Positions 8,701 to 46,993 of a stretch of DNA of 64,000 nucleotides are shown here, one piece after another; the stretch's first letter is position 1; each line of letters starts with the position of its first letter. Where the stretch lies: the IMG/VR virus record IMGVR_UViG_3300031857_000007, one strand, 5' to 3'. A program made the translations under genes and the position numbers. The stretch comes from a virus (lineage: Duplodnaviria; Caudoviricetes). Below the pieces are notes generated by a model that searched no databases, was not told where the DNA came from, and was given only the letters and a program-made list of their open reading frames with translations.

Positions 8701-11700
8701 TTTTATATGTTCCAGTATATTCACTTTCATATCGATATATTGTATTTCCCTCTTTAATATATTCTGCATCAATTATTATCTGTGATTTTTCTACTGGGAT
8801 ATTGTCAATATTTACAACATCCAATTTGTAATATATTGTCTGCGGGAAATTTTGTGTTGCATTAATTTTTACGTTAGCTGTTGGATCAATACCAACAACT
8901 CCTTCCCTATAAATTTCAAATTCGTTGGATAACTGAGAAGTTTCAAATTTATTTTTGAAATTTTTATCTAGATAGAAATTCAGTTCAAACGCAGGATATA
9001 AAGTAGAATTTTTGCTATAAGAAAGAGAAGAATCTGACAAATCAAAAATAACAGAAGATCCTTTTAAAATTGCCAATTCTGGGTTTATTGGCGATAATGT
9101 TCCAAAAGAGGAGCTTCCAATACTTACTATTGAAGGTTTTGAAGATACTGATTCATAATAATTTTCGGATAGTTTAATTTTGTTTTCATCTAAAACTACT
9201 GCATAATAAATTTGCTCATTAGTTAATCCTGTACATGGAGAAGTAGATGTATGAATTATCTTTTGTCCATTATTATATCCATGATTATTAATTGTAATAA
9301 TATCATTGACAATATCAACATCCGAAGAAACAAAAGATCTTGGATTTACTATCAGTCTTCTATTGTAATCATTATACTTGACTACAATAGTTGTTGATAT
9401 TCCTGGAGAAGAATTGATATAAACTGAGTCTTTTATGTTTAAACCGTGCGTTGACGCAGTAGAAATGGTGACAATATTTTTAATTCCAGAACCAATAACA
9501 ACGTTGTCATAATTTGTTCTAAAGCTATGTATTGTTCCAGTACCTATGCCAGTAAAGTATAAAATACTTGTAGGTTTGCTGCTATCAATACCAACATAAG
9601 TTCCTGTTGACCCAACACCAACTTTAAGAGTTGATATTCCTATTAAATCATTATTAATCCTTACAGAATAAACTATTTGATTATCTAATAGTTGGAAACT
9701 AGAAGATCCATTTGTTGAAACGGATACTGGTGTTCCTCCGTTAGAAAAATAGACTAGTCTATCTCCAGTTTCCAATCCATGATTCTCATAGTAAATTGAC
9801 CTTACTGGAATAGTTACAGTAGAACTTCCACTACCTGGATTTGAAATGTATGCAGTATATGTTCCAGTTATACCAATTCCAAGCGATTCTGAAGGATTAA
9901 AATAAATTTCCCTGTTTACTCTATACTGGTTAGAAGTATTATAACCAACATTAATGGTAAACTTTCTTGAATTTTCGTATAGGGGCGTTAAAGATGTATG
10001 TGCAGATCCGACAGTATTATCATACTGCCTTAATACTTTAATTCTTGAAGATTTTATATCGACGGACAATACTTTTACTTTTTCGGTACCTATTCCTAAT
10101 ACATCATTTTCTCTAATATTTGGATAAATTAGAGATCCTGAAATATTAAAATATGTAACAATACCAGTTGCAGCTGCACTTCCAATTCCAGATATTAATT
10201 TAAATGTTTCCGATCTAACACCAACTTCATATAAATTTTTTAAACTTGTAGTAGTTGTATTGATTCCTGTTATATAAACATAATCAGAATTTTTAAATCC
10301 ATGGGGCAAACTTGAGAATCCTATGAAACTACCTAACGTTAGATATGGAGAAAACTCTATATTTTCAATTTTATTAGTAGAGCATGATATTTCTTGGATT
10401 TCATTTCCTTTAACCAAAGAAACTCTGGCTGAAGCTCCTCTTCCACCAGTTTCTGTGTTATCAAATACTACCAAATCTCCAACGTTATAATTGATTCCTC
10501 CACTAACAATTCCTACAGATTCTACCGCACCTTTAGTTGCAAACTTAATTTTGGAAGTTTGATTTTGTATATTTGAAGGTTTTATTAAATAATCATAAAA
10601 AGTGTTTTCATTTGTAAGTCCATATGGTGTTGTATTTCTAAACCAATATGTTCCACTTAAATCTATACTATCTTGATTAGCATATCTTGTAAAATTATAT
10701 TCTATTGGTTTGGATCTAAATTTATTTCCTATTAGATATGGGAATTCGGGTTTTTTGTAGTTTTTAAATACTCCAGAAGATTCTACAGTATCAGAATTGA
10801 TCGTAGAGAAATATGCATAAACACCATTGGGATATTCGGGAGTTATACACCATCTTCCATTATATTCGTCCAAATCTCCTTTTGCTTTAAATTCATAATC
10901 CTGAACAAAGAATCCTTTTGGATATAAATCTAAACTTGGTCTAGTAGTGGGCAAATTCTGTATTATTTCATATCCAGATATCATTTGCTTAACTGTTCCA
11001 GATCTAGATCCAACTTTAGTAAATCCATAAGGACCATAAATTGGATTTCCGTCATATGCCCACCCAATAATTGGTGAGTGAGATGAAGATTTAACTTCCT
11101 TATCATTAATCAGAATTAAATCTGGTGTATAATTTAAATTGCCATCAACAAATCTTGAAGACAATAATGTTTTTCTTAAGCTTCTTGGTGAATATATGTG
11201 AGTATATTGTAATCCATAGTCACTATTAAGACCAGAATCTACTATCCCGTCATCATTTGAGATTTTATTATTTTGGTATAATTTTTCAAATAAATTAATT
11301 GTCCATTCTTTAATCTTTGCCTCAAATTTTGCTTCTTGCCCTCTAGACAATACAATCGCTGTTGTATTTGAAGTATTAAATCCAACTCCACCATTAATTA
11401 CTTTCACTTCTGTTAATTTTCCATCATTAATTATTGGAGTCATTAAAGAAGAATAACCGTCTCCATAATAAATTATTTCTGGAGTCGAATTATAATTTGC
11501 GCCAGAATTATTGACTAAGACATCAACAATTTTTCCATTTGAAACAATTGGTGTTATTTCCGCACCATCGCCATTAACAAGAGTAATTTGGGGTTGTCTA
11601 TTATATCCAATAATATCGGAACAACCATATCCAACTCCACCAGAATCTAAGAAAACTGATTTAATTTCCCCTAAAATAATAGGTCTAATTTTAGCATTAA

Positions 11701-14700
11701 AATCTTGTCCAGATTTTGTAGAAACTCCTATCACACCATTGATTAAAATTTCAATAGGTGGGTAGTTAAAGTAATGATTATCATCATTATTTGATGTCAA
11801 ATTGACAAATTGATTTGTTTCATAGAAATATCTAGATAATGTACTTCCAATTCCCACTTCAGATAACTTAAATTTATCATCGTCAATTTTAGATACAAAG
11901 TATTTTTTAGAAGTTGATAATCCACCAATAGGGTTTATTGACTCATAAGTTATGATATCTCCCTCATTATACCCATGATTTTTTGCAGAAATTTCATTTG
12001 AATATGTGTTGATTCCAGATCTAGTAACTGATATTTTTCTATTGGTAAAATTATATCCAGCGTTTAAAATATTAATAAATCCAATTCTATTTTTTGGTGA
12101 ATATGATCTGAATCTATGATTACCAATACCATATGATGTCAAATTGACAGTATTAATTCCGATAATGGCATCATTTTGAGTTTTATGTAATTTGACTGTA
12201 TATGCGTCCTCTACATAAACATAATATTGAGAATCTGTAGTCAATCCGCCAACAGATTGCTGCTTATCTGTTCTGTAAATAACCCTTTCAGAATCTCTAA
12301 ATTTATGATAAGTTGAAAATGCTATAGTATTATTTGACAAGTCTACCATGTTGGCATTTGATGATGAATTAAAATCAACATAATGCTCAAATGAAGTTAA
12401 AGTTGCTTTGGCAGTTGCTTCCTGCCCATTTAAACCGCTAATAGTTATAATTGGTTCTGATATATAATCAAACCCAGGATCTATAATATCAATTCTTTCT
12501 AAGGTTCCGACAACTGAACAAAATCCAGTTGCGCCAACACCAATTTTATCTGTTATTTGTAAAATTGGGGGATTTACTACATCATAATCGTATCCTCCAC
12601 CAGAGACGATAATTTCTTCTAGTTCTCCATAAAAAATACTATCAGAAGATTTGTAATTTAATACTTCAACACCATTAACTAAAATTCCAATTGCTCCAGG
12701 CAAAGTTTCGTAAATATTGCCATCGTCTTCGGGATCTGATATTTTTCTTATAATTTTTTGAGGTTCAACTTTCTGTGAATTGAATTTGTAATATTCAAAC
12801 TTATTGTTTACGACAGTTCCATTAACACTTACAAATTTATTATTGTCTATATTAGATCTACTTTTGGATAACTTTATTGTATCCTCATCAATTTTTTTGA
12901 CATAATATATGCCATTAAGAATATCCAATCTATTATTCTCGTCAGACTCATTATACCAGATTGCTTCTCCGGTATAAAATCCATGTCTAACAATTCTTAA
13001 TTCTTCTCCAGAAAAAGAACCAGAAAAAGTAACTGATAGATCATTAATGTTGAGTGGTTCTTCATGATAAGTTGGTAATGATGGGGAAGTTACAAATGTA
13101 GAATCCAAATCCGTATATACATTTTGTATATTTGTAGTATAGAGACTTAGTTCTGGTTGATTTGTTGAATTTACTCTTGAAAGAGATTTTTTTACATTAA
13201 CTATTAAATTAGTTGGTGGTATTAACCCTTGCCCTTTAATTATGCAAGAATTTCTATTTTCTATCGAATAAATTGTTGTTTTTATGATAGAACCATCAGT
13301 CAACAATAATTCTAGAATGTCCCCAATGTTGAAAATATTTTGATCTATTGTTGCCAATCTATAAGTATAATCTGTAGAATCGATAAGATCTAAAGATTTT
13401 ATTGTATAACTTGGGCATATATTAAAGATCCAATTATTATCTCTAAACTTTTTAGAGTCATATCCTAAAGTTTTAATTCTTACGGTATCATTTTTTGCAA
13501 AATAATAAGTGTTATCAATGATATCTAAATCAGAAAGGACCCCTGTTACTCTAAACTTTATTATTTGGTTATTTTTTCCATATCCATAAGCATATGCGTC
13601 CACATTTAAGTCGGATCCTGCAGGAATATTTTGATCTATTCCATAGCAATTATACAGCTGAGTTAAACTTTTACCAGAGTATCCAATAGAAACTGTAGTT
13701 CCATTGTCCAATTTGGTATATAAAATTGCTTCAGTGGGAAATGATACTGTAGAATCTACATCAATAAATGTGGCTCCTATTGAAACATTATTGAGTATTT
13801 TTGTTCTTGGGTGTATCGAAAATTCTCCAAATATAGATCCATTGAGTCCAATATCTTTTTGGTAATCATAATCAAGACTAAGAACATAATATTCTTTTCC
13901 ATCTCTTAAAATCTTTTCTATATTATTGACAACACCATTTGCTCCATTGTAAAGATCACCTTGTTCCTGATATATCGTTCTATTCAATAGTTCGCTTAGA
14001 TCTTCGCCTTCTAGAGACTCTACAACTAAATTTCTAACTACTCTATACTGAGCATTTGAAGGCTCAATTAAATAATCTTTTGGTTTTATTACTTCAACGT
14101 CTACTCCATATAGGGCTTTGAATAAAATTTTGTACGATTGATCAGTTCCTTTTGAAGTATAAAAATCTTTTGAATTTGTAATGAAAAGTTCTTCGTTTAA
14201 ATTCTCATAAAATTCTCTACCTTCAAATCCAGGAACAACTTGTTTTTTTATTTTGTTGAAAAAGTCTTTAAGAAATCTTATACTTAAATTACTTACTGTA
14301 GATCCACTAGCATGTGTTGCTATTCCTGATTGAGAGAATATAAGTTGATCTAAATTAGTATTTCCTTGATATGTTGTAATACCACTAAATCCTCTAGCGC
14401 ACCCAACAAATTGATTTGTTGTTATTCCAGTATAGGTAATTATTTCAGAATCAATTTGAATCAATCCATAACTATCAGGAAATCCATATGTGGATTCTAC
14501 CTCAATAACATCTCCCAAAGAATCGATGTCATTAATTAGAACAGTAGAATCTGTAAGATTGGTTAAATTTTCCAATTTTACATATTGATCTATGTTCTGA
14601 AGTATATCAGATACTCCTCCCTTAGCATCGAGTGATTTATAATACTGAGATAGAAATTCCGCGACAAGAGGATACTCATCGCGTACAAATAATGGAAGTT

Positions 14701-14743
14701 GATTTTCAACAATAGAGTTGATTTTGATTCTTGTATCTGCCAT
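2780..14743 (-). CDS. gp7: Baseplate wedge initiator gp7-like giant protein
   Basis: 3987 aa with N-terminal QLPLFVRDEYP and FYTSKGTDQSYKILFKALYG, many GxGY beta-repeats and an IIGWAYDGNPIYGPYG (YHYH-like) segment; sits between gp6 and gp8. Confidence 0.75.
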   Translation of the reverse strand: MADTRIKINSIVENQLPLFVRDEYPLVAEFLSQYYKSLDAKGGVSDILQNIDQYVKLENLTNLTDSTVLINDIDSLGDVIEVESTYGFPDSYGLIQIDSEIITYTGITTNQFVGCARGFSGITTYQGNTNLDQLIFSQSGIATHASGSTVSNLSIRFLKDFFNKIKKQVVPGFEGREFYENLNEELFITNSKDFYTSKGTDQSYKILFKALYGVDVEVIKPKDYLIEPSNAQYRVVRNLVVESLEGEDLSELLNRTIYQEQGDLYNGANGVVNNIEKILRDGKEYYVLSLDYDYQKDIGLNGSIFGEFSIHPRTKILNNVSIGATFIDVDSTVSFPTEAILYTKLDNGTTVSIGYSGKSLTQLYNCYGIDQNIPAGSDLNVDAYAYGYGKNNQIIKFRVTGVLSDLDIIDNTYYFAKNDTVRIKTLGYDSKKFRDNNWIFNICPSYTIKSLDLIDSTDYTYRLATIDQNIFNIGDILELLLTDGSIIKTTIYSIENRNSCIIKGQGLIPPTNLIVNVKKSLSRVNSTNQPELSLYTTNIQNVYTDLDSTFVTSPSLPTYHEEPLNINDLSVTFSGSFSGEELRIVRHGFYTGEAIWYNESDENNRLDILNGIYYVKKIDEDTIKLSKSRSNIDNNKFVSVNGTVVNNKFEYYKFNSQKVEPQKIIRKISDPEDDGNIYETLPGAIGILVNGVEVLNYKSSDSIFYGELEEIIVSGGGYDYDVVNPPILQITDKIGVGATGFCSVVGTLERIDIIDPGFDYISEPIITISGLNGQEATAKATLTSFEHYVDFNSSSNANMVDLSNNTIAFSTYHKFRDSERVIYRTDKQQSVGGLTTDSQYYVYVEDAYTVKLHKTQNDAIIGINTVNLTSYGIGNHRFRSYSPKNRIGFINILNAGYNFTNRKISVTRSGINTYSNEISAKNHGYNEGDIITYESINPIGGLSTSKKYFVSKIDDDKFKLSEVGIGSTLSRYFYETNQFVNLTSNNDDNHYFNYPPIEILINGVIGVSTKSGQDFNAKIRPIILGEIKSVFLDSGGVGYGCSDIIGYNRQPQITLVNGDGAEITPIVSNGKIVDVLVNNSGANYNSTPEIIYYGDGYSSLMTPIINDGKLTEVKVINGGVGFNTSNTTAIVLSRGQEAKFEAKIKEWTINLFEKLYQNNKISNDDGIVDSGLNSDYGLQYTHIYSPRSLRKTLLSSRFVDGNLNYTPDLILINDKEVKSSSHSPIIGWAYDGNPIYGPYGFTKVGSRSGTVKQMISGYEIIQNLPTTRPSLDLYPKGFFVQDYEFKAKGDLDEYNGRWCITPEYPNGVYAYFSTINSDTVESSGVFKNYKKPEFPYLIGNKFRSKPIEYNFTRYANQDSIDLSGTYWFRNTTPYGLTNENTFYDYLIKPSNIQNQTSKIKFATKGAVESVGIVSGGINYNVGDLVVFDNTETGGRGASARVSLVKGNEIQEISCSTNKIENIEFSPYLTLGSFIGFSSLPHGFKNSDYVYITGINTTTTSLKNLYEVGVRSETFKLISGIGSAAATGIVTYFNISGSLIYPNIRENDVLGIGTEKVKVLSVDIKSSRIKVLRQYDNTVGSAHTSLTPLYENSRKFTINVGYNTSNQYRVNREIYFNPSESLGIGITGTYTAYISNPGSGSSTVTIPVRSIYYENHGLETGDRLVYFSNGGTPVSVSTNGSSSFQLLDNQIVYSVRINNDLIGISTLKVGVGSTGTYVGIDSSKPTSILYFTGIGTGTIHSFRTNYDNVVIGSGIKNIVTISTASTHGLNIKDSVYINSSPGISTTIVVKYNDYNRRLIVNPRSFVSSDVDIVNDIITINNHGYNNGQKIIHTSTSPCTGLTNEQIYYAVVLDENKIKLSENYYESVSSKPSIVSIGSSSFGTLSPINPELAILKGSSVIFDLSDSSLSYSKNSTLYPAFELNFYLDKNFKNKFETSQLSNEFEIYREGVVGIDPTANVKINATQNFPQTIYYKLDVVNIDNIPVEKSQIIIDAEYIKEGNTIYRYESEYTGTYKISGIGSTTFSFSMPTVPEKNIYRKNEGLFEYYTDSKTSYGEIYALDVDTTGSQYEKLPGISTIVSEKGTGAVLLPYSSSIGQVKTSIINDIGYDYYADTTIRPLAKLPEILKISTLTSFEKIGITSAGINYAVSPDLLVIDGLTRKIVDDVDLFYKVGDTEVTILKNTTGISNVPPIIIPVNNCNGVGISSIGYNPLTNYVTVGLAVSYSNASDFPFSVGDKVLIENISVGLGSTGRGYNSSQYSYGLFPVVAVSPNIGGINATVTYDLTEYISSGQVPGRYDPINSKGRIIPEKHFPKFDAILSKNNFIKGETVVSDDSIGIVENWDQKNEILKVSTNKEFYTNTVLRGLSSKSQGLISNKESFEATYEIDSSSIVTKGWERQTGFLNSSLQKIHDNDYYQYFSYSLKSEIPYETWNTPVSNLNHVVGYKKFSDLVIETRDLDYVGIQTSQDNGDFYGICDFSSTINLNHIYDYDLVFEETINNDNNIISTDIVFTSKEIQDYLQSIGNRVLEIDDFSDTFKSVPRSTPFSIVDTFRMNDSRSRKYITYVRDKRFSSDRQILLVSLLYDNDFGYLNQYGRVESYLEDLGSFDFTVNGDEGNLLFYPSKYTVNDYNISLLSFNLKDDVTATSTSYFGDIIRLSTSNVNASSSTPSTIVSIASTYRSTKILVQIESNNDIYEYDELTAIHDGTNVDLLEYGQITNHSRNAYASSGLGTYNAYLSGPGLIVEFIPNPGVAATINTMAISFAANTSGSVGTGTAILSTSSLSSNYVSIASTSAPTQNLVSSYSSDYSGAYYIASVEDTTNSRYQISELVVVDETVFNTTSITEFGIVETHSGLGTFGSDISGNQTNLYFTPNPNINAQVRIFQVAMKPLDEGIATNNIDLNNGFIKSNYGSYEGTERDVRRSFELTSSGREIFKRYFDGTDSSVVNITNNTIRIPEHYFVTGEELQYSSPGIGNTQSIGITTAISIPGIGITNKLPGSIYAIKVSDLDIRVAASATDALKAVPIPLQLNSLGIGTVHSFTSKRQNSRVLVTIDNVIQSPIVGSSITTTCAKTVEIVDDRVKFSGITSFFSDDLIMVDDEIMRLNTVGLGSTNIVQVQRGWMGTNIGIHTVGSLIKKILGDYNIVGNTINFFKAPYGKSPIGTDSNRPDDRDYTGITTHSTFSGRSFMRSSATNSTSDPYSKNYIFDDISEGFTGIKSTFTLRSEGKNISGISSDNAVILINQIFQGPQRLGVVDIVGDYTLTENAGITSITFNGSYDPDDITSTNLPFGGQIVSVGSTKGFGYQPLVAAGGTAIVSSAGTISAISIGNSGSGYRSGIQTTVNVGVYTESLTSTNITYVGFASVSNGNIVRVSITNPGIGYTSSNPPKVIFDSPLSYSNIPLVYSTNSTPGFGTGATISIVVGQGSSIIDFEIQNNGYGYGQGEKLTIEYGGSTGIPTDITKNLQPFELSIDRIYNDQFNGWSLGSFQVIDNIDELFDGQVNTFPIKIDGVQQSIRSKKGSNINVESTLLVFINDILQTPGQSYIFEGGSIIKFVEAPRAGDTSKILFYKGTEGVDVVSVDILETVKVGDQLRIYSEDLSLNQTNRLVTRVNSSDSVLTNPYSNIGVSSNRNLLRPVIWCRQTEDVIIDGIQISKNREWYEPLVNPSTNIIQSVGVGSTFIFVESVKSFFDSAKENTSSSIYYTVKLTSQDQKVSAASTAIVSIAGTISSINITSGGIGYSTNPTVTIANPVGLGTTLRASANAFISAGVVTSIQINYGGIGYTTTNPPVVLIEDPEPISEIIEYVSYEGDFGRIVGVATTSVVGVASTAIAFDFYIPQNSILRNSSIVGTAITISGISTGYYFVVNKSNVGNGVTSLRRDKSIVGVGTEFLDNVYEVISVSNVTRSIPGIGVTYVSRVITSVSSYNGLTGIANTGYYGNYSWGKVSTNSRTNPTAFNSYNNNGTTGLSTNPILIRLNPLRYFNYNS

Positions 14744-17938: not shown

Positions 17939-18079
17939 TTATTTACCTTGTCCCCGATACTTCTTCTTACGTCCATTACGAGAAGTTGGTGAAAGTAATG
18001 TACGAGGAGAACGCCCCTGACGAGTTTTCTTGGGTGCTCCTGGTTCAAAGATTACCTTATTGTTTCCACCTTTAGCCAT
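17939..18079 (-). CDS. Small basic protein (46 aa)
   Basis: Manual translation: MAKGGNNKVIFEPGAPKKTRQGRSPRTLLSPTSRNGRKKKYRGQGK; GGAGG RBS upstream. Confidence 0.7.
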   Translation of the reverse strand: MAKGGNNKVIFEPGAPKKTRQGRSPRTLLSPTSRNGRKKKYRGQGK

Positions 18080-18235
18080 TTAAATTTCCTCCAGTTCAAT
18101 ATCAATAGGATCAAAAGACTTTTCCTCATAGAAGTTTTCGGAAAAATCTTGAAGAACCTCAGTACATTCTTCAATACTGAGGTTCGAATAAATTTTACGA
18201 CCTTTATAAAGGATATTGTAAAATTTTGTAGTCAT
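18080..18235 (-). CDS. Hypothetical protein (51 aa, probable start MTTKFY)
   Basis: ATG overlaps the upstream stop codon. Confidence 0.6.
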   Translation of the reverse strand: MTTKFYNILYKGRKIYSNLSIEECTEVLQDFSENFYEEKSFDPIDIELEEI

Positions 18236-19002
18236 CAGATAATACGAGTTTTTTCGTGTCCAACGCGAATTCGAGGATCGCACCAAATCTTAAATCCTTT
18301 CTCAATAGCGTCAAGACAGAACGAAACGTCTTCACCACACATATCTTGAACTTGCCCAGATTCAAAGACTTGCATCTTAGGAGCAAACCAAGGATATTCG
18401 AGATTTTCGAAGACTCCATTTTTAATCAGAACCCAACCAAATCCAGTGTAGTCAACAGTAAAAGGCTTACGACGCTTTGAGATTGATTCTACAGTCTCAT
18501 GATTCATGACTCCACCATTCTTACGGAAGTCGTCTTCCTCTAACCAGTGAGCCACTGAGGTTGTGTGCCCGTCTTCAGTTGCATACCAACCAGCAGAAAT
18601 AGGACGTTCCTCACCTTCTGCAGGAAATGCAAGGTCACAAAGTTGCCAGAATTTTTCTGAGTTAAAAACAATGTCATTATCAATCCATAGTTGATAATCA
18701 TATTGTAGTTTTCCATCCCAGGGAACTTGGTTTGGACCTCGGAGAACATTTGCGCCGAGAACTTTACACCTTGCAAAATTAACCATAGATGAGTAATCCT
18801 GAGAAATCTGGATACTCATTTCATTCTTTACTAGATCAAAGCATAGTTGTACGAATGACTTGAGGAATGTATAAGAACAACCTCTTCCAGGAAGACAAAA
18901 AACAATTGACTTCCCTCGCATTCTTTCTCTAATAGCATCATAATCCCACTCTTCAGTCTTGGTCTTAGGTGCTACCGTTTTAACAGTGAATCCTTTTGCC
19001 AT
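18235..19002 (-). CDS. Glycosyltransferase-A-fold-like protein
   Basis: YDYQLWIDNDIVF (DxD-like motif), YTGFGWVLIKNGVF, GEDVSFC and DPRIRVGHEK. Confidence 0.65.
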   Translation of the reverse strand: MAKGFTVKTVAPKTKTEEWDYDAIRERMRGKSIVFCLPGRGCSYTFLKSFVQLCFDLVKNEMSIQISQDYSSMVNFARCKVLGANVLRGPNQVPWDGKLQYDYQLWIDNDIVFNSEKFWQLCDLAFPAEGEERPISAGWYATEDGHTTSVAHWLEEDDFRKNGGVMNHETVESISKRRKPFTVDYTGFGWVLIKNGVFENLEYPWFAPKMQVFESGQVQDMCGEDVSFCLDAIEKGFKIWCDPRIRVGHEKTRII

Positions 19003-19026
19003 AAGTTTTAGTAACCTTCAAAATCA

Positions 19027-19055
19027 ATTTTATCGTCTTATTTAGTGTTTGTCAA
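19027..19055 (-). promoter_or_regulatory. Sigma70-type promoter with a nested T4-late-like promoter
   Basis: TTGACA-17 nt-TAAAAT, with CTAAATA inside the spacer. Confidence 0.7.
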
Positions 19056-19068
19056 TCTAAGAGGCCCC

Positions 19069-19260
19069 TCAAAAAGAAGAAGCGTTTATTATTTCTTTGT
19101 TAATTGCAAGTTCTTCATATTGTAGATCTTCTTTCTTAAATTTTACGTCAAGAACCTCAATCATTCTGTGCATCATTTCCCAGGTCTCCTCAAATTTGTT
19201 CTTTGGGAGATTGTGATATATGCACTTACCCTTTGCATATATGTGATATACTTTATCCAT
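19069..19260 (-). CDS. Hypothetical protein
   Basis: 63 aa ORF, collinear. Confidence 0.6.
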   Translation of the reverse strand: MDKVYHIYAKGKCIYHNLPKNKFEETWEMMHRMIEVLDVKFKKEDLQYEELAINKEIINASSF

Positions 19261-19590
19261 CTGAATAATATTTGAACGGCTTTCGCGTCGGTCCCATTAT
19301 ATATTCACTCACGGGATAGAAGTATTTTTACGGTTTCCTTTACACACAGCAAAATATACTCGAATTGCTCTCCGAGGGTCGTTTTATAATCGGAAATTTT
19401 TTTATCAGAAAATGGTTTATTCTCCACTTTTACCCTCCGGAAATTTTTTTAAGTATAATAACACTCTCGCTTTTTGTCACCTCTGTAGGTTAGGGTAGTT
19501 AACAATTTTTATAACGGGGGGCACGGCGGGGCGGGGGCGGCGGACCGCGCCCCATACAACTGCCCATCACGAACATGCCACTAACGAAGA

Positions 19591-19929
19591 TCAGACCCCA
19601 CGCCGCTCTAAGGCAGCGGAGCGGCGATCTGCGGCATACTGTGCTTTGGCACGGGCAACCACAGAATCAAGATCGCGAACCATCTCCTTACCGATTCCAC
19701 AAACGCGGGTCAGGGTCACACCCTTACCAGCACCCGCAACGGTGTCGCCAGTGGATCCGAAATCACCACCGCGAACGTTACCGATCGCTGCCCCTCTACC
19801 ATGCTGCGATTGACGCTGCCAGGTCTCACCCTTGCGAGCGTGGCGAGTGGGCAGGCGGCGGTAGGAAATTTCACCACGGCAGTCTGCCAGCAGGAGGTCA
19901 AGGCGGTTGGCGGTTTGAGCGTTGATCAT
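19591..19929 (-). CDS. Early hypothetical protein, Arg-rich (probable start MINAQT)
   Basis: ATG lies 22 nt downstream of the TACAAT -10 box; the longer start in the ORF track overlaps the promoter. Confidence 0.65.
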   Translation of the reverse strand: MINAQTANRLDLLLADCRGEISYRRLPTRHARKGETWQRQSQHGRGAAIGNVRGGDFGSTGDTVAGAGKGVTLTRVCGIGKEMVRDLDSVVARAKAQYAADRRSAALERRGV

Positions 19930-19951
19930 GGGATCGGTTGGCGACTTGTGA

Positions 19952-20009
19952 ATTGTAGCACGAAACGGGGTCACCCCCGCCCTGCGTGTGCCTCAGAGTA
20001 CTGGGCGGC
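19952..20009 (-). promoter_or_regulatory. Early promoter element, degenerate copy
   Basis: TACAAT at 19952-19957; half-site GTGCCTCA starts 30 nt away; GGGG-TGA-CCCC in the spacer. Confidence 0.5.
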
Positions 20010-20141
20010 GATGACGGTAGCGGGCACTCCCCAGTGAACGTAGGAGGAAGGGCGGGAACCGTTCTTCAGTTGATCGGCGCGGGAGATCCATTTGATCTGG
20101 CGGGTCTGGAGGTCAGAGCACATGGCGAGAGGGAAGCGCAT
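19971..20141 (-). CDS. Early hypothetical protein (56 aa)
   Basis: Manual translation MRFPLAMCSDLQTRQIKWISRADQLKNGSRPSSYVHWGVPATVIAAQYSEAHAGRG; downstream of a sigma70 promoter. Confidence 0.55.
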   Translation of the reverse strand: MRFPLAMCSDLQTRQIKWISRADQLKNGSRPSSYVHWGVPATVIAAQYSEAHAGRG

Positions 20142-20165
20142 TGGTCGTCTGTCGGTTGCTTGAGA

Positions 20166-20195
20166 ATTCTACAGGGTCAGGGGGGCAGGGGTCAA
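20166..20195 (-). promoter_or_regulatory. Sigma70-type promoter
   Basis: TTGACC-18 nt-TAGAAT; the -35 box overlaps the TGA stop of the upstream gene. Confidence 0.65.
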
Positions 20196-20374
20196 TACCC
20201 CAACCACACCAGGAACTCACCAGCGTCAACCCCGCCGAAGTCAGAGGTCGTGCCATAGTCGGTGCGGAAGTCATCCCACAGACCGTGCTGTTTGGCAGCG
20301 TGTGCCGCTTCGATCCAATAGATGGTGCCATTCTCAGGGTTGGTGATTTCAGCGATCAGGTCGGGGAAGGTCAT
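20192..20374 (-). CDS. Early hypothetical acidic protein (60 aa)
   Basis: ORF directly downstream of the promoter element at 20400-20458. Confidence 0.7.
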   Translation of the reverse strand: MTFPDLIAEITNPENGTIYWIEAAHAAKQHGLWDDFRTDYGTTSDFGGVDAGEFLVWLGY

Positions 20375-20399
20375 CGGTTGCCTTGCGGTTGACTCTGTA

Positions 20400-20458
20400 A
20401 TTCTACAGGGTCAGGAGCGCGATCCACAGGCGGCGGGGGACACTTGGCAAATTGTCTC
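20400..20458 (-). promoter_or_regulatory. Early promoter element
   Basis: TAGAAT at 20400-20405; palindrome GGGACACT-tggcaa-ATTGTCTC at 20437-20458; gap 31 nt. Confidence 0.65.
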
Positions 20459-20566
20459 TGCCTGCTTCTCTTGATATGAATTAATTGTGGCAGTGGCAGA
20501 CTGTACAAAAGTGGAGGCAATTGCAATGCAGAAGATTGCAAACATTGAAGGGAGAATTGCTCGCAT
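20411..20566 (-). CDS. Small predicted membrane/secreted protein (51 aa)
   Basis: Manual translation MRAILPSMFAIFCIAIASTFVQSATATINSYQEKQAETICQVSPAACGSRS; hydrophobic N-terminus. Confidence 0.5.
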   Translation of the reverse strand: MRAILPSMFAIFCIAIASTFVQSATATINSYQEKQAETICQVSPAACGSRS

Positions 20567-20590
20567 TGTACTTATAAAATTAATGTCAGA

Positions 20591-20758
20591 TCAGAATTGA
20601 ATCGCGGTCAAAGTAGGGGCACTGATTGAAGCATAATGTGCGGCACAATCGTTGATGTTCTCCTGTTCAATGTCGCTGGTGATAGTTTCCAGAATCTGGA
20701 GAATGTCGGATCCGTTGTTACCTTGACGCAGAAGGGAAAGAGCCAGTTCGCGGGACAT
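20591..20758 (-). CDS. Early hypothetical protein (55 aa, probable start MSRELA)
   Basis: C-terminal part of track ORF 20591..21019; the upstream part overlaps the real gene at 20823..21068. Confidence 0.55.
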   Translation of the reverse strand: MSRELALSLLRQGNNGSDILQILETITSDIEQENINDCAAHYASISAPTLTAIQF

Positions 20759-20822
20759 TTGATCAAAAAAAGTTAATGTTTGGCGGAGTCTTTTTTGGGC
20801 GCTGCCATTCCCATTGTTCAGG

Positions 20823-21068
20823 TTAGAATGCCACCAATTGATCCAGATCCCATTGTGGCACAACCTGAACCTCAGCATAGGTGCTGGCGTTCTCTGCCAG
20901 CCAAGAATTGATGTGGCGGGTGGTGGTGGCGCTCCACTTGTGCTCTGTCCGCATCCAACCCTTACCAGGCACCAGAGCGGCGACAGGGGTGGAATAGGAG
21001 AACAGAACCTCAGTGCCATCCGCGAGGGAGACTTGAGTTTTGTTGCTGCCGATGGCGGAGACTTTCAT
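20823..21068 (-). CDS. Early hypothetical protein (81 aa)
   Basis: Protein-like VLFSYSTPVAA...WSATTTRHINSWL; follows a promoter element. Confidence 0.75.
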   Translation of the reverse strand: MKVSAIGSNKTQVSLADGTEVLFSYSTPVAALVPGKGWMRTEHKWSATTTRHINSWLAENASTYAEVQVVPQWDLDQLVAF

Positions 21069-21091
21069 GGCGGGTTGCCTGAACTGAGATC

Positions 21092-21151
21092 AGTATAAAG
21101 GGTCAGGGTGGGGGATCGGTGTCCCCCTTGTGCCAGTGCCTCAGTCGGCAT
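21092..21151 (-). promoter_or_regulatory. Early promoter element
   Basis: TATACT at 21092-21097; GTGCCAGT-gcctca-GTCGGCAT at 21130-21151; spacer hairpin GGGGGA-caccga-TCCCCC. Confidence 0.75.
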
Positions 21152-21332
21152 AAAGGGAGTTGAAATCCTCCACAAACTCCAGCGCCTCATCACCCGTCAT
21201 GCGGGAGATCATTTCACGGGCGATCGTTTCCCAGGAGTAGTGATCCGCCAGATCACAGATCGCCTCACGGGCATCGGAAGCGTAGCGGTGAGCGGCGGTG
21301 ATCTGAGCGTAGGTCATTTCCAGGCGGGACAT
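21141..21332 (-). CDS. Early hypothetical acidic protein (63 aa)
   Basis: ORF lies between two promoter elements; its stop codon is inside the next palindrome. Confidence 0.7.
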   Translation of the reverse strand: MSRLEMTYAQITAAHRYASDAREAICDLADHYSWETIAREMISRMTGDEALEFVEDFNSLYAD

Positions 21333-21355
21333 GGTAGATCGGTTGAACTGAGATC

Positions 21356-21414
21356 AGTATAAAGGGTCAGCGGTGCCCCCATATGGGTCTGGTGGACAGT
21401 GCCTCAGTTGGCAC
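21356..21414 (-). promoter_or_regulatory. Early promoter element
   Basis: TATACT at 21356-21361; TGGACAGT-gcctca-GTTGGCAC at 21393-21414; shares 26 identical nt (gaactgagatcagtataaagggtcag) with the copy at 21081. Confidence 0.75.
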
Positions 21415-22300
21415 ACTGGAAACGTCCGCTGTTGAAATTATGATAGGAGAACACCTCACGATTCACGAGTTTGAACATACCAAACTCATTGGTCATTACA
21501 TAACCCTCAGCGTCAATACGATTGCCGTTCACATAAGCAGCAGGACCATAATTGCGACACAAGTATACACAATCATCTTTGATAGACTTAACCAATGCCC
21601 ACAAGCGAATCAGGTTAGGATCACAATCAAAGTCCTCAGCAGCAACCTGTTCGCCAGCACGAATGCAGGCGTTGATTTGTTGTTTGATCTTTGCTGCTTC
21701 CTTATCAGAAACAAACTCACAAGCGGTAGACATTTGGCGGGCAAAGTCCACAACTTCTTTCACATCAGCAAACGATTCTTGATTGTAAAGAATGTATGCT
21801 TCAGGTTTCACAAACTTAACAGTTTCAGTATCATTCCAGATCGCACGGTCAGGCATTGCAACTGCTTCGCGCAGATCATTCTCTGCAAAGTAGCAAGTGT
21901 GAGGGGCAATGATAATCTGCTGAGAAACTACCTCAGAAAACTTGTAAGTAATCGTGTTGGGAGTATACTCATCGCTACCGCCAAAACCAATAAAATCACC
22001 TTGGTAGACAGTATTGGTGCGAGGAAGATAATCAAAGCAAGCATGAAGAATAGACGCAACCTCACCTTGATAGTGTTGATCAATTTCTTCATGAGAGTGA
22101 GCAATGCGAATCTTTTTCTTGTTAAAGACTGCTTTCGTTCCTACAAAGAACTCACCGTTTGCAGGATCAATTCCCCACACAATTGCGGGAGCACCATCAA
22201 TCTTAACGCTCAAAGTGCCAGGGGCAATGAACCAATCAAGACACGAAAGATCACCAGTGAGAATGGTATCTTCGGGGTGTTCGAGGTGTGTGTTTTTCAT
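21404..22300 (-). CDS. Conserved phage protein with a KxDG nucleotidyltransferase/ligase-like motif (DUF6267-like)
   Basis: 298 aa with NTHLEHPED, LSVKIDGAPAIVWG and VYQGDFIGF. Confidence 0.6.
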   Translation of the reverse strand: MKNTHLEHPEDTILTGDLSCLDWFIAPGTLSVKIDGAPAIVWGIDPANGEFFVGTKAVFNKKKIRIAHSHEEIDQHYQGEVASILHACFDYLPRTNTVYQGDFIGFGGSDEYTPNTITYKFSEVVSQQIIIAPHTCYFAENDLREAVAMPDRAIWNDTETVKFVKPEAYILYNQESFADVKEVVDFARQMSTACEFVSDKEAAKIKQQINACIRAGEQVAAEDFDCDPNLIRLWALVKSIKDDCVYLCRNYGPAAYVNGNRIDAEGYVMTNEFGMFKLVNREVFSYHNFNSGRFQCAN

Positions 22301-22306
22301 GCTCTT

Positions 22307-22365
22307 AGTATGGCAGAGAATTGAGCGGATCGCAAGAGGGCGTGTGCCAGTTCTCAGAGTGCCCC
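22307..22365 (-). promoter_or_regulatory. Early promoter element
   Basis: CATACT at 22307-22312; GTGCCAGT-tctcag-AGTGCCCC at 22344-22365; gap 31 nt. Confidence 0.7.
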
Positions 22366-22680
22366 ATTCTCATCAAGAATTCCCCACTGAATGGTTCCCT
22401 GATACATGCCAATGTAACGGTTTCCAATACTCAAACCAACGATTTCATCTTCACTATCACCAATCAGATTGACACTGAAATAGAAATAGTTGCTGATAGA
22501 ATCGGGGGTGCGGAATTTCATAACCTGAATTTTCTCCCAAAGAATAGTAGCAATTGCAGCAACGAATGCTGCGGCAGTGATTACAAAACTCTTCATATCT
22601 TGATAGAGTTTCTGATAATCAACCTCCTGCAGTTTCACGAACAGATCATCAGCAGGCGGGAAAGATTTGGTCAGTTCCAT
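22354..22680 (-). CDS. Hypothetical protein with one predicted TM helix
   Basis: 108 aa; hydrophobic segment FVITAAAFVAAIATILW. Confidence 0.65.
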   Translation of the reverse strand: MELTKSFPPADDLFVKLQEVDYQKLYQDMKSFVITAAAFVAAIATILWEKIQVMKFRTPDSISNYFYFSVNLIGDSEDEIVGLSIGNRYIGMYQGTIQWGILDENGAL

Positions 22681-22701
22681 TGTGAAGAAAAGGTGAAAGA
22701 A

Positions 22702-22875
22702 TCAGTTCAGGAAGGTTGCGGGATTGCCATAATCGGCAATGTGATGACCATTCAAACGAATCTCAGCGTAACCGAATTCCTCTGCCAAATCATAACAGAG
22801 ATCGTATGCCTGACCCTCATCACTCACAGACTGCGACTCATAAGGGGCAGAGGGGACGATAACTTCGTAACGCAT
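22702..22875 (-). CDS. Early hypothetical acidic protein (57 aa)
   Basis: Manual translation MRYEVIVPSAPYESQSVSDEGQAYDLCYDLAEEFGYAEIRLNGHHIADYGNPATFLN. Confidence 0.7.
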   Translation of the reverse strand: MRYEVIVPSAPYESQSVSDEGQAYDLCYDLAEEFGYAEIRLNGHHIADYGNPATFLN

Positions 22876-22897
22876 GAGGTTTGTTTGAACTGAAGTC

Positions 22898-22956
22898 AGT
22901 ATAGGGGGTCAGCGGTGCCCTTGTGGGGTTTTGGTGGACAGTTCAGGGATTGGACC
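22898..22956 (-). promoter_or_regulatory. Early promoter element
   Basis: TATACT at 22898-22903; TGGACAGT-tcaggg-ATTGGACC at 22935-22956; gap 31 nt. Confidence 0.7.
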
Positions 22957-22977
22957 GCCGCGGCCACTCAGTTTGTG

Positions 22978-23154
22978 TCACTTAACCACGATACGGTTCA
23001 ATTCTTCAAGTGTGCTCACATTCCAGTTGGCAATGTCACCATGGGGAGCATACAGTTTGCTATACCATTCCCCATACAATTCAGGATTAATGAGTTGCAC
23101 CTTCTCTAGAGTTTCTGCAATCTCAACATTCAAATTGTGTTGGAAATTAGTCAT
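22978..23154 (-). CDS. Hypothetical protein (58 aa)
   Basis: Manual translation MTNFQHNLNVEIAETLEKVQLINPELYGEWYSKLYAPHGDIANWNVSTLEELNRIVVK. Confidence 0.6.
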   Translation of the reverse strand: MTNFQHNLNVEIAETLEKVQLINPELYGEWYSKLYAPHGDIANWNVSTLEELNRIVVK

Positions 23155-23345
23155 CAACCCTCCAGCAGTTCGGGGTAGTATTCTTCACACTCGGTGATCA
23201 ATTCTTCATCAGAATACTTAGCATAACCCTCATCCAGATAATCATAACAAAGCTGCGTCATTGTCTTGAGATCCATGTCATCCAACATCTGCTGAATGAG
23301 TTGATCTTGGAGTTCAGAACGGTTCATGTTAGTGTCAGTTGCCAT
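23154..23345 (-). CDS. Highly acidic hypothetical protein (start may be 23327)
   Basis: 63 aa, D/E-rich; coupled to its neighbours. Confidence 0.7.
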   Translation of the reverse strand: MATDTNMNRSELQDQLIQQMLDDMDLKTMTQLCYDYLDEGYAKYSDEELITECEEYYPELLEG

Positions 23346-23448
23346 TGATGATGTTCCAGAATTGTTTAGAGTTTGCCCCAGGAATGTGGGGAAGTTTCTT
23401 CTCCCAGTATCCTGTGATGTGACGATACCAAACTTTCAGGATGTTCAT
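23335..23448 (-). CDS. Small hypothetical protein (37 aa)
   Basis: Manual translation MNILKVWYRHITGYWEKKLPHIPGANSKQFWNIINGN. Confidence 0.5.
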   Translation of the reverse strand: MNILKVWYRHITGYWEKKLPHIPGANSKQFWNIINGN

Positions 23449-23451
23449 GAT

Positions 23452-23577
23452 TCAGTAATCGTATTCGCCGTTAATGTAATCCGTGAGGTTAAAATCTTCT
23501 TCTTTCAGTTCAGGAATGTCCAGATCGAAGATCTCACCAGGCATGTCTTGAATCTCTTGCCACATTTCATCAAACAT
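23452..23577 (-). CDS. Very acidic mini-protein (41 aa)
   Basis: Manual translation MFDEMWQEIQDMPGEIFDLDIPELKEEDFNLTDYINGEYDY; GAGGGAG RBS upstream. Confidence 0.65.
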   Translation of the reverse strand: MFDEMWQEIQDMPGEIFDLDIPELKEEDFNLTDYINGEYDY

Positions 23578-23602
23578 TGGTGTCTCCCTCAGGAACAAAC
23601 GT

Positions 23603-23660
23603 AGTATGGCACCGATCAGGGCACGAATCAACCGATGGTGGACAGTACGGGAACTGGCTC
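23603..23660 (-). promoter_or_regulatory. Early promoter element
   Basis: CATACT at 23603-23608; TGGACAGT-acggga-ACTGGCTC at 23639-23660. Confidence 0.7.
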
Positions 23661-23785
23661 ACGAACCCTCTGGCTGCCGCCCAGGAGGCGCTAGAATGGG
23701 GTCACAAGCGAATGAGGGGTGAGGTAGCCCTGCGGACGACAATTATCGACACTGAAGCAGCTTTGAAATATTAATTGCAAAGTAT

Positions 23786-23812
23786 AAAAAAAGGGAGGCA
23801 TTGTGCCCCCCC
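23786..23812 (-). terminator. Intrinsic terminator after the ArdA-like gene
   Basis: GGGGGGCA-caa-TGCCTCCC-TTTTTTT. Confidence 0.8.
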
Positions 23813-23819
23813 ATTTGAT

Positions 23820-24257
23820 TCAGTGATCGCGGAAGATATGCATCGAACGATAAGAAGTTCCATCGTTACATGCAGTGAAATCATAACGCAACGAAGTCTC
23901 CCAAGTTGCTTCCCAATCCACTACAATTCCAGAAGGGATATCATAACCCATATCATCATAGAAAGATTCAGCAAACTCTGCCTCATCATTGAAGCAACCT
24001 TGATAACGCTCATCACAGCATTCAATATCACTCATGCAACCAACTTCGCCAATGAGAGCATCAACTGCCTCGTATCCGATTGCTTCACCACAACGAACAT
24101 ACTCCTCGTAATAGTTACAGAAGTCGTCCTCATTGTAGGTATCAATGAACTCCAACATGTCATCCAGAGCGTAGTTATCTTCCAGACGCTCTTCAATGAA
24201 CTCTACAGTTTGAACATTCAGAGTTTCTTTGTAGTTAGCGGTCAGGGTGATCGACAT
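23820..24257 (-). CDS. ardA: ArdA-like antirestriction (DNA mimic) protein
   Basis: 145 aa, extremely acidic; C-terminal YQGCFNDEAEFAESFYDD...VDWEATWETSLRYDF resembles the ArdA C-terminal pattern. Confidence 0.65.
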   Translation of the reverse strand: MSITLTANYKETLNVQTVEFIEERLEDNYALDDMLEFIDTYNEDDFCNYYEEYVRCGEAIGYEAVDALIGEVGCMSDIECCDERYQGCFNDEAEFAESFYDDMGYDIPSGIVVDWEATWETSLRYDFTACNDGTSYRSMHIFRDH

Positions 24258-24372
24258 GATGAAAAGAATTAGTTTGGGTTGGGGTGCTGATCTCCCCTAC
24301 AGCATGTGAAGGATCTTACCTAGGACCTTTCCGATATCGGTGGTTTCGCTAGGAGGGTTCGCTTCTGAAAGT

Positions 24373-24431
24373 AGTATGGCAGCAGTGGGGGGAGAAATCA
24401 ATCCCCCTTGTGCCACTTGTCAGACCGTCAC
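24373..24431 (-). promoter_or_regulatory. Early promoter element
   Basis: CATACT at 24373-24378; GTGCCACT-tgtcag-ACCGTCAC at 24410-24431; spacer hairpin GGGGGA...TCTCCCCC. Confidence 0.7.
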
Positions 24432-24632
24432 ACGTCCTTCCATTTCACGCAATTGATTCATGATATCAAATAGTTCCATTTCGTCCATATCAGCACTCTC
24501 CATATCTACGGGTGCAAATTCATTCAAATTCACGCTACCGTCAGAATAGATTGGAGCATAGAACAGTTCGTTACTATCTTCCTGCGACAGGGTGAATACA
24601 CAACCGTAGTTGGTGGCAGTGAGAAGAATCAT
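24420..24632 (-). CDS. Early hypothetical acidic protein (70 aa)
   Basis: ORF between two promoter elements. Confidence 0.7.
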   Translation of the reverse strand: MILLTATNYGCVFTLSQEDSNELFYAPIYSDGSVNLNEFAPVDMESADMDEMELFDIMNQLREMEGRVTV

Positions 24633-24842: not shown

Positions 24843-25004
24843 TTACCAAATACGGTCTAGACTCAGATCTTCAATATATGCCTTCACACGCTCATCGCCA
24901 CCCAATTCAAACAGTTTTTCCCAATCAATATCGCGTGGGTTAAAGTCTTGAAACACGTCTAGTTCTAGAGTAATACGATACTTGTTTTTCTGTGCGTAAA
25001 CCAT
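24843..25004 (-). CDS. Hypothetical protein (53 aa)
   Basis: Manual translation MVYAQKNKYRITLELDVFQDFNPRDIDWEKLFELGGDERVKAYIEDLSLDRIW; has its own sigma70 promoter. Confidence 0.65.
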   Translation of the reverse strand: MVYAQKNKYRITLELDVFQDFNPRDIDWEKLFELGGDERVKAYIEDLSLDRIW

Positions 25005-25030
25005 AGGATCTAGGTGAAGTAACTATGTAC

Positions 25031-25059
25031 ATGTTACATGAATCTAGAAGGAATGTCAA
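25031..25059 (-). promoter_or_regulatory. Sigma70-type promoter
   Basis: TTGACA-17 nt-TAACAT. Confidence 0.6.
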
Positions 25060-25295
25060 GTGCATGGTGTATATATGAATCTCGATATGAATCTAGTTGT
25101 ATATGTGTGAATCTCGATATGTTGATATAATGATATGAATCTAGTTGTATAATGCGAATCTAGATGGGCAATCTAGTTGTATGATGCGAATCTAGTTGAG
25201 TCTAGTTGTGAATCTAGTTGTGAATCTCGAAGGATATATGCGAATCTAGTTGTATAATGATATAACGTTATTGTTATATGATATCATGAATCTAG
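25040..25295. repeat. Array of 13 GAATCT(A/C)G(TTGT) direct repeats (iteron-like)
   Basis: Copies start at about 25040, 25077, 25089, 25109, 25137, 25156, 25169, 25188, 25198, 25210, 25222, 25242 and 25288; spacing is irregular and there is no ORF. Confidence 0.9.
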
Positions 25296-25338
25296 TTTTA
25301 TATGTGCCCGCCTCCGTGTATTTTTGTTTCGGGGGCGC

Positions 25339-25367
25339 TTGACATTTTTTCGGAGTTGTGATACAAT
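25339..25367 (+). promoter_or_regulatory. Near-consensus sigma70 promoter with no downstream ORF
   Basis: TTGACA-17 nt-TACAAT with an extended TG. Confidence 0.75.
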
Positions 25368-25393
25368 GCACGCTAAGATCACAAGACTCTGAG

Positions 25394-25443
25394 GCATTTA
25401 TAAGACATTTATAAGGCATTAATAAGTTTATAAGACATTAAAG
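25394..25443. repeat. Tandem (G/A)CATTTATAAG repeats leading into an AT-rich tract
   Basis: gcatttataag acatttataag gcattaataag tttataag acattaaag. Confidence 0.8.
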
Positions 25444-25564
25444 AACTCAGAGACTCTCTAACAATATAACGATAACATTATAAGAGATAAATCACACAAA
25501 CATATTTAAAAATACATTTATTAATTAATTTAATTGTTTTTTACCATAAAATAAGCATTTTTAG

Positions 25565-26047
25565 TCATAATTGTTCAATAGTATATTCTTTCCATTCTTT
25601 AATCTTACAATCATTCAATAGGAATTGCATCTTATTATAAGGTGCTCTTGGTTTGCGAATTAACCTCATATTGGTTTGTTCTAATAGAGTATTACCTTTC
25701 TTTGTATTACAAGAACTACATGCTACTACAAGATTTTCCCATGTATCTTCTCCACCTCTACATTTAGGAATAACATGATCAATTGTCAATCGTTGTGTAG
25801 ATTCGCAATATTGACAAGTATGATTATCTCTCTTGTAGATCATTGATCTTGATGGTTTGTTCATAACAATCTTAGAAAATGGTACTTTCACATAACTTAA
25901 AAGGCGTATGACTCTATTCGATAATATCTGTGCCTTTTCTTTTAAGAGAAGAACTATTGCTCTTTTCCAACTGGTTATGTTTAATGGTTCATAGGAAGAG
26001 TTTAATACCAAGATACTGGTATTTGGTTGTATCGTTATACCATTCAT
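25565..26047 (-). CDS. HNH endonuclease (McrA-like)
   Basis: CQYC...TIDHVIPKCRGGEDTWENLVVACSSCNTKKG. Confidence 0.9.
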   Translation of the reverse strand: MNGITIQPNTSILVLNSSYEPLNITSWKRAIVLLLKEKAQILSNRVIRLLSYVKVPFSKIVMNKPSRSMIYKRDNHTCQYCESTQRLTIDHVIPKCRGGEDTWENLVVACSSCNTKKGNTLLEQTNMRLIRKPRAPYNKMQFLLNDCKIKEWKEYTIEQL

Positions 26048-46831: not shown

Positions 46832-46879
46832 AACTTAAACGGAAAACTCATTATTATTTATATTGCTATGTCTTTTAAG

Positions 46880-46954
46880 TAGCGGTGGCGAGATTCGAAC
46901 TCGCACTGTATTGATTTTAAGTCAACTGCCTGCTGCCGATTGGGCTACACCGCC
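46880..46954 (-). tRNA. trnL: tRNA-Leu(UAA) with a short variable loop
   Basis: Cloverleaf GGCGGTG...CACCGCT-A; anticodon loop CT-TAA-AA; T-arm GCGAG-TTCGAAT-CTCGC; no encoded CCA. Confidence 0.9.
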
Positions 46955-46963
46955 AATAAGACC

Positions 46964-46992: not shown

Positions 46993-46993
46993 G

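Follow-up and report, generated by a model that had tools for sequence, protein, structure and literature searches.

The repeat array and its surroundings

The window (the whole stretch of 64,000 nucleotides analysed here) belongs to a T4-like cyanophage, with Pfam matches to gp32, gp59, a gp33-like protein, and baseplate and tail proteins. Its nearest DNA matches are Synechococcus phages, none of which is close. The locus described here is non-coding and combines an array of short direct repeats with two divergent promoters, a conserved leader and an AT-rich tract (Table 1). All genes around the array are encoded on the minus strand. To its left runs an early operon that is led by a 53-aa gene and includes an ArdA-like gene. 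This 53-aa gene is highly conserved beside the module in most relatives, with or without the array. The HNH (McrA-like) gene on the right, which lies outside the conserved module, is found beside it in this phage only among the loci examined; isolate S-SRM01 carries a homologue elsewhere in its genome.

Some further features of the window concern its gene content. An island of higher G+C content extends from 18000 to 24500 (0.43-0.51 against 0.30-0.38 elsewhere) and has long ORFs open on both strands; several acidic mini-proteins are encoded in it and, on the minus strand at 23820-24257, the ArdA-like anti-restriction protein. A single ORF of 3987 aa (2780-14743) is located beside the baseplate genes in the part of the window with the lowest G+C content (~0.30). 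ARAGORN predicts tRNA genes for Leu-TAA, Met-CAT and Ile-TAT at 46879-47184, of which Rfam supports Leu and Met only. Among the 71 ORFs, Pfam also detects an antitoxin domain (Phd/YefM) and the N-terminal domain of a TnsA-like endonuclease. Upstream of early genes we observed TGTGCCA/TGGCACA inverted repeats at 12 sites between 19988 and 35972 (e.g. 21393, 24693, 31510 and 35972). These palindromes were considered as relatives of the array and rejected, as their word is of a different, unrelated type. It is similar to the -24 element of sigma54 promoters, although no sigma54 is known to us in cyanobacteria.

The array motif GAATCT(A/C)G occurs as 11 exact copies and two one-base variants, and a further variant at the start of the neighbouring gene brings the number to 14, all on one strand and spanning 25006-25295. 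The 64-kb window contains 13 matches to GAATCTMG, of which the exact copies of the array make up 11, against a mean of 3.19 in 100 shuffles, none of which reached 13. The motif clusters at one locus only, as it does in isolate S-BM3. Intervals between copies range from 10 to 46 nt, and TRF finds local periods of 12 (25188-25227, 3.5 copies) and 19 (25137-25198, 3.6 copies). The conserved repeat core measures 8-12 nt, its invariant part being ATCT[A/C]G, with spacing modes of 12, 19-20, 24 and 30-32 nt. Helical phasing of the spacings is weak (R 0.28 at 10.5 bp), and its significance is overstated because the arrays are related to one another. The window sites are mainly single half-sites, the symmetric form being limited to the 8-bp ATCTAGAT. 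Outside the motif, the top strand of the array has C at only 6 of 144 nt. No ORF of more than 63 codons was found over any of the copies.

Both promoters were returned by a sigma70 scan. The -35 hexamer of the leftward promoter occupies 25054-25059 and its 17-nt spacer contains the repeat copy at 25040-25047. The same holds for loci L077, L030 and L062, which have a copy inside the spacer of this promoter and, as in the window, another immediately ahead of the 53-aa start codon. The rightward promoter is the best sigma70 match of the scanned region and is kept across related loci. Since the neighbouring genes are all on the minus strand, this promoter serves no gene. The possibility that the array itself is a cluster of sigma70 promoters was rejected: it holds a single additional match, a weak one, and the number of matches in the region equals the shuffle expectation.

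Where the window has a hairpin next to the rightward -35 box, many relatives have a G-run. The leader that follows the promoter is the most conserved piece of the module, being present in 26-28 of 30 loci with at most two mismatches per 14-mer. Beyond it, the units of CATTTATAAGA stand where relatives have one to five longer leader units. The AT-rich tract, located 105-195 nt downstream of the rightward promoter, exceeds every other stretch of the 64-kb window in AT content at scales of 40, 60, 80 and 100 bp, and its sequence is partly conserved in relatives. The sequence-only reading had described 13 copies at irregular intervals in ORF-free DNA, bracketed by two divergent promoters and accompanied by an AT-rich tract, and all of these elements were recovered.

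The stretch 25459..25488 is an inverted copy (89%) of the array segment 25261-25279. More precisely, 25261-25279 and 25464-25482 form an inverted repeat of 89% complementarity that brackets the plus-strand promoter, and its second arm falls where relatives place 9-mer boxes. Loci L030 and L062 retain words similar to this repeat.

Table 1. Positions of the array, promoters, module elements and flanking genes in the window.
Feature	Position	Strand	Details
53-aa early gene, PHROG 12516	24843..25004	-	leftward from array; start codon 25002-25004
14th repeat copy, one-base variant GGATCTAG	25006-25013	+	directly before start codon of 53-aa gene
Leftward sigma70-type promoter	25059-25031	-	TTGACA-17-TAACAT, 10/12; sigma70 scan
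Array of 13 direct copies of GAATCT(A/C)G	25040..25295	+	copies often extended by TTGT
Exact copies of GAATCT(A/C)G	25040, 25077, 25089, 25109, 25137, 25156	+	motif search
Exact copies of GAATCT(A/C)G (continued)	25188, 25210, 25222, 25242, 25288	+	motif search
One-base variant copy	25169-25176	+	C at base 1
One-base variant copy	25198-25205	+	G at base 3
GC-rich hairpin	25306..25338	+	8-bp stem, -16.2 kcal/mol, z -2.55; abuts rightward -35
Rightward sigma70 promoter	25339-25367	+	TTGACA-17-TACAAT, 11/12, with TG (extended -10)
Conserved leader and predicted transcript start	25368..25390	+	contains GCTAAGATCAC; predicted start ~25372-25376
Tandem repeat of 11-nt unit CATTTATAAGA	25395..25439	+	4.4 copies
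Position of relatives' 9-mers (2 direct, 1 inverted)	25459..25488	+	no DnaA box here
AT-rich tract, candidate DNA unwinding element	25472..25562		95% AT over 40 bp
HNH endonuclease gene	25565..26047	-	convergent; right boundary of module

The module and the array in related phages

The rightward promoter forms part of a non-coding module found at 40 or more cyanomyovirus loci (30 IMG/VR loci and at least eight isolates). The isolates comprise S-SM2, S-SRM01, Bellamy, S-BM3, SynMITS9220M01, S-SCSM2R, S-8S53/55/56 and S-SCSM1. Its sigma70 promoter is near consensus and is followed by a conserved leader; further downstream come, in this order, one to five leader repeat units, a trio of 9-mers (two direct, one inverted) and an AT-rich tract. 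The isolates share the promoter and the ~20 bases transcribed first, and in their records this region either falls between genes or has no annotation. The module is present once per genome in S-SM2, S-BM3, Bellamy and S-SRM01, the genomes in which it was counted.

In 12 of the 27 unique loci the module carries clustered copies, with at most one mismatch, of TTTTCCACA, which is the cyanobacterial DnaA box (PMC4674748). S-SM2 has three perfect boxes in 190 kb, two of which lie at the module at a distance of 21 bp, and in both S-BM3 and S-SM2 the module is the densest DnaA-box cluster of the genome. Other loci have 9-mers of the ATTCTCAAT or TTATCAATA type; the ATTCTCAAT type retains the layout of two direct and one inverted copy. 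At the window module no DnaA box was found with up to one mismatch, and the 64 kb contain no perfect box; one-mismatch boxes in the window are below chance level and unclustered.

Syntenic arrays in relatives, proposed earlier as a check, do exist: an array is present in about 11 distinct related modules, including those of S-BM3 and S-SRM01, and missing from about two thirds of modules. Eight loci or locus pairs share both core and orientation with the window (L030, L062/L202, L076/L113, L077, L089, L163, L174 and S-BM3), whereas in S-SRM01 and L192 the core is inverted. Copy numbers range from 6 to 21. The module of S-SM2 has no array, and that of Bellamy has neither array nor DnaA boxes. 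A complementary distribution of arrays and DnaA boxes was considered and dropped, as S-BM3 has both.

From the start codon of the 53-aa gene to the rightward promoter the distance is 126-140 nt at 18 array-less loci, against 306-531 nt at array-bearing ones. By these spacer lengths, the array is an additional 170-400 nt that have been inserted, or have arisen by expansion, between the -35 boxes of the two promoters. Since about two thirds of the loci do without it, the array is accessory rather than a set of defining origin iterons.

Aligned to the arrays of L077 or L030, the window array shows 66-69% identity with many gaps and is no longer alignable, and yet each of the three retains 13-17 core copies despite diverged spacers. 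Between close relatives the motif is conserved a little more strongly than the spacers (0.98 versus 0.93 and 0.95 versus 0.90), and L174 contains recent block duplications of ~50 nt. Together these two observations indicate that slippage contributes to upkeep of the array. Across genera the core is kept with differing flanks and in both orientations, which argues for a probable function.

The sites of some relatives are more symmetric than those of the window. S-BM3 has perfect palindromes in which two ATCTAG half-sites face each other across 1 nt, and S-SRM01 and L192 have TCTCG/CGAGA palindromes, also across 1 nt. Such palindromic full sites suggest a dimeric binder. In L163 the -35 box of the rightward promoter has sites directly next to it. 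All ten 10-mer sites of S-SRM01 (241 kb) fall within an early region of 5.5 kb, where they form three intergenic clusters. Its two additional small TCTCG/CGAGA clusters (MW015081.1) are intergenic, one at a distance of 2.5 kb from the module (88.1-88.3 kb) and the other at 5.3 kb (90.9-91.0 kb).

In S-8S53 (L279, OQ504982.1) the position of the window array is taken by another kind of repeat. About ten copies of a GC-rich CGCGCAGG-type repeat (~330-640) lie there upstream of the conserved promoter, with three DnaA-like boxes downstream of it.

A proposed operator-like array on an origin-like module: interpretation and alternatives

We estimate a probability of roughly 50% that the copies form an operator-like array of half-sites, which controls the leftward early promoter and modulates the rightward promoter of an origin-like module. 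The copies (core ATCT[A/C]G) would be half-sites for a putative sequence-specific DNA-binding protein, probably a dimer. The accessory array grows and shrinks through block duplication and has been inserted into a back-to-back promoter spacer of ~133 bp, within a conserved and apparently single-copy non-coding module. This module comprises a strong predicted early promoter, a leader, repeats, initiator-type 9-mer boxes and an easily melted AT tract, and its rightward transcript may prime or activate an origin, as at T4 oriE, oriF and oriG. When occupied, the array would most likely shut off leftward early transcription, given that the promoter has one site within its spacer and its mRNA has another at the 5' end; the promoter on the origin side would probably be modulated as well. 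In short, the array, its insertion, the promoters, the synteny, the kept motif, the DnaA boxes and the AT tract are observations, whereas we infer protein binding, repression and origin function, with the array as a putative control element of the origin region rather than the origin core.

Two properties typical of operators are found: sites overlap core promoter elements (25040-25047 in the spacer, 25006-25013 at the mRNA 5' end), and symmetric dimer sites occur in S-BM3, S-SRM01 and L192. A cognate DNA-binding protein is the third, and here no candidate emerged from Pfam, proteome comparison or an AF2 model of the 53-aa neighbour. Against the operator reading, most copies lie 50-280 nt from either promoter, which exceeds the need of simple repression. 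The single cluster in the window and in S-BM3 fits locus-specific iterons equally well, and recent block duplications could retain the motif without selection.

The search for the binder covered several sources. Among the 71 window ORFs, Pfam revealed no classical regulator or Rep protein; the matches related to DNA binding are limited to the Phd/YefM antitoxin domain, HNH and NUMOD3. No Rep-like gene was found near the array by Pfam on these ORFs, and PHROGs assign no function to the neighbouring genes. The 53-aa neighbour was considered as an autoregulated ribbon-helix-helix repressor and rejected, its AF2 model (pLDDT 78) being predicted almost helix-free. Comparison of the proteomes of S-BM3 and S-SRM01 with those of S-SM2 and Bellamy yields 12 proteins that are common to the array-bearing phages and absent from the array-less ones, and none of these 12 has a recognisable DNA-binding domain. 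When the window ORFs are compared with 29 loci, some genes are restricted to array-bearing loci, but this pattern is confounded by close kinship. Searching for three spaced copies of the 8-mer was unspecific both in a viral collection, where 103 of 108 hits were unrelated tandem repeats, and in a bacterial collection, where no host array was recognised.

With regard to the module itself, a promoter occurs together with boxes of swappable initiator type and an AT tract that is conserved, which is the layout of an origin that transcription primes or activates. The module is the strongest candidate for a replication origin of T4-like cyanophages, and we lean slightly towards the view that it is one. 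GC and AT skew are monotonic in four complete genomes because nearly all genes lie on one strand; they give no origin signal in either direction, so that GC skew cannot test the origin reading. The sequence-only reading had proposed the array as iterons of a candidate replication origin. The origin-like build holds up (conserved promoter and leader, AT tract, DnaA boxes in relatives), the role of the array as defining iterons does not. The repressor-operator array that it had mentioned as the alternative fits at least as well, given the site within a promoter, the palindromes and the clusters of S-SRM01.

We consider it unlikely that the copies are true iterons, on which a phage- or host-encoded initiator would assemble to open the AT-rich tract, in replacement of the DnaA boxes of relatives. 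The array does reside on an origin-like module, its motif is clustered at a single locus in the window and in S-BM3, and its modal spacing of 19-20 nt is iteron-like. The lack of a perfect DnaA box in the 64 kb (with one-mismatch boxes below chance) fits this reading as well, as do the four modules with the largest arrays in the window clade, in which no 9-mer boxes are recognisable. The CGCGCAGG-type repeat of S-8S53, with ~10 copies at the array spot, is what swappable initiator specificities would lead one to expect, and at T4 oriE syntenic iterons adjoin an early promoter (PMC3016281). However, about two thirds of modules are array-free, and arrays coexist with DnaA boxes in S-BM3 and with other boxes in L076, L192 and S-SRM01. 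The geometry is unfavourable too: the promoter stands between the array and the AT tract, which are 180-450 nt apart, and the orientation of the array relative to this tract is reversed in S-SRM01 and L192. Moreover, S-SRM01 has more clusters at other intergenic sites, and no Rep-like gene is encoded nearby (71 window ORFs, Pfam).

A broader version, which we regard as doubtful, is that T4-like cyanophages share one conserved, transcript-driven origin with a modular initiator-binding cassette. Some lineages would then dock host DnaA, and others would use arrays of the GAATCTAG type (as here) or the CGCGCAGG type (S-8S53), bound by a putative phage or host initiator; the array of the window would thus stand in functionally for DnaA boxes.

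Somewhat less probable still is a purely transcriptional locus, that is, an early regulatory or non-coding RNA module without an origin, in which the array regulates the two promoters. DnaA also acts in transcription regulation, so the presence of its boxes is compatible with such a locus. The promoter and the first ~20 transcribed bases are the most conserved part of the module, as this explanation would predict, and in S-BM3 and S-8S53 the transcript can be taken as an mRNA leader because a plus-strand gene follows the module. Properties of the transcript itself point the other way. It has no Rfam match at the gathering score nor at E up to 1, and its predicted fold is weak (z -1.7); a structured RNA gene finds no support in either result. 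The number of leader units varies between loci from 1 to 5, which makes a conserved RNA structure unlikely, and relatives do not retain the inverted repeat of the window. In addition, swappable boxes in the arrangement of two direct and one inverted, next to an AT tract conserved in sequence, are a typical origin layout.

That the array is a functionless product of slippage, in which a short unit expanded in a recombination-prone, gene-free spacer, appears improbable. The block duplications of ~50 nt in L174 and the marginal excess of motif over spacer conservation in close relatives are in line with it, and tandem repeats with the array 8-mer turn up frequently in viral and bacterial sequences that are unrelated. 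Slippage would not readily account for a core that persists in several genera despite differing flanks, in either orientation and in palindromic form, nor for positionally conserved copies in promoter elements. Finally, a decoy that titrates a host DNA-binding protein (a regulator or defence sensor) early in infection is the most improbable explanation, because the position is fixed between the same promoter pair in several genera, copies lie within promoter elements and we know of no host site with the array motif, even though the copy number, at 10-21, is high and changes fast, no phage-encoded binder was found (71 window ORFs, proteome comparisons) and the array lies beside an early operon with an ArdA-like anti-restriction gene.

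Comparison with known systems

By analogy, the nearest known case is T4 oriE. Its repeats measure 12 nt and are evenly spaced, and their role is still undefined (Kreuzer and Brister 2010, PMC3016281). The two loci have in common a T4-type phage, an early promoter of the host sigma70 type at the repeats (here predicted with scores of 11/12 plus TG and 10/12) and short direct repeats that are syntenic in relatives, here in ~11 modules, though about two thirds of modules lack them. The even spacing, in contrast, is not seen in the window, where intervals vary between 10 and 46 nt and period 12 is restricted to 25188-25227. The arrangement differs as well, as the array lies upstream of the promoter with one copy inside a second, divergent promoter.

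The putative origin also resembles T4 oriF (uvsY) and oriG (gene 34), in which a promoter without a gene fires into an easily melted tract (PMC3016281); a predicted promoter followed by a candidate DNA unwinding element is likewise the layout of the window. The promoters of oriF and oriG are MotA-dependent middle promoters, and cyanophages have no MotA. The promoter of our locus is of the early type, and ~100 nt of repeats (in relatives, also DnaA boxes) precede the AT tract.

Taken over all loci, the joint presence of direct repeats, an AT tract and, in relatives, DnaA boxes recalls origins of the P1, F and RK2 type. Iteron-type theta origins with host DnaA boxes include P1 oriR, F, RK2, pSC101 and R6K gamma. 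Compared with these, whose iterons are regular and 17-22 bp long, the window has neither an adjacent Rep gene nor a DnaA box, and its repeats appear shorter and irregular. Arrays of the omega repressor heptad (pSM19035) and of ParR/parC (R1) are contiguous, and their small binder is encoded adjacently. They share with our array the many sub-sites of 7-11 bp, direct or inverted, over or between promoters; here the spacing is irregular, and the 53-aa neighbour, judged by its predicted model, appears unlike such binders. The cyanobacterial oriC forms a last point of reference, since the modules of relatives cluster the exact box TTTTCCACA by an AT-rich tract (PMC4674748). The window, by comparison, lacks a DnaA box, and the module is far smaller and promoter-driven.

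It had been noted beforehand that no mapped origin of T4-like cyanophages was known, and our literature search gave the same outcome: for cyanomyoviruses (Kyanoviridae, T4-like) no paper was found that maps an origin or describes DnaA boxes, the sole mention found being a review that cites a predicted single theta origin for Syn9 (PMC2984593). New here are the array as an optional insertion into a spacer of fixed length, the half-site and palindrome structure common to several genera, the S-8S53 locus with another repeat in the array position, and a window lineage without DnaA boxes.

T4-like cyanophages rank among the most abundant viruses of the ocean. The locus and its relatives provide a concrete single-copy origin candidate that is testable in cultured phage-host pairs, and S-BM3 is an isolate with both array and DnaA boxes. 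If host DnaA or another factor is recruited, phage replication would be tied to the replication state of the host. A control region that accepts lineage-specific cassettes of binding sites points to a putative DNA-binding regulator or initiator of early infection. As a separate observation, the leader units of L163 (~6660-6800, reverse strand coordinates) carry AATCTAAG, which is one base longer than the array core and hints that array and leader units are perhaps read by one factor.
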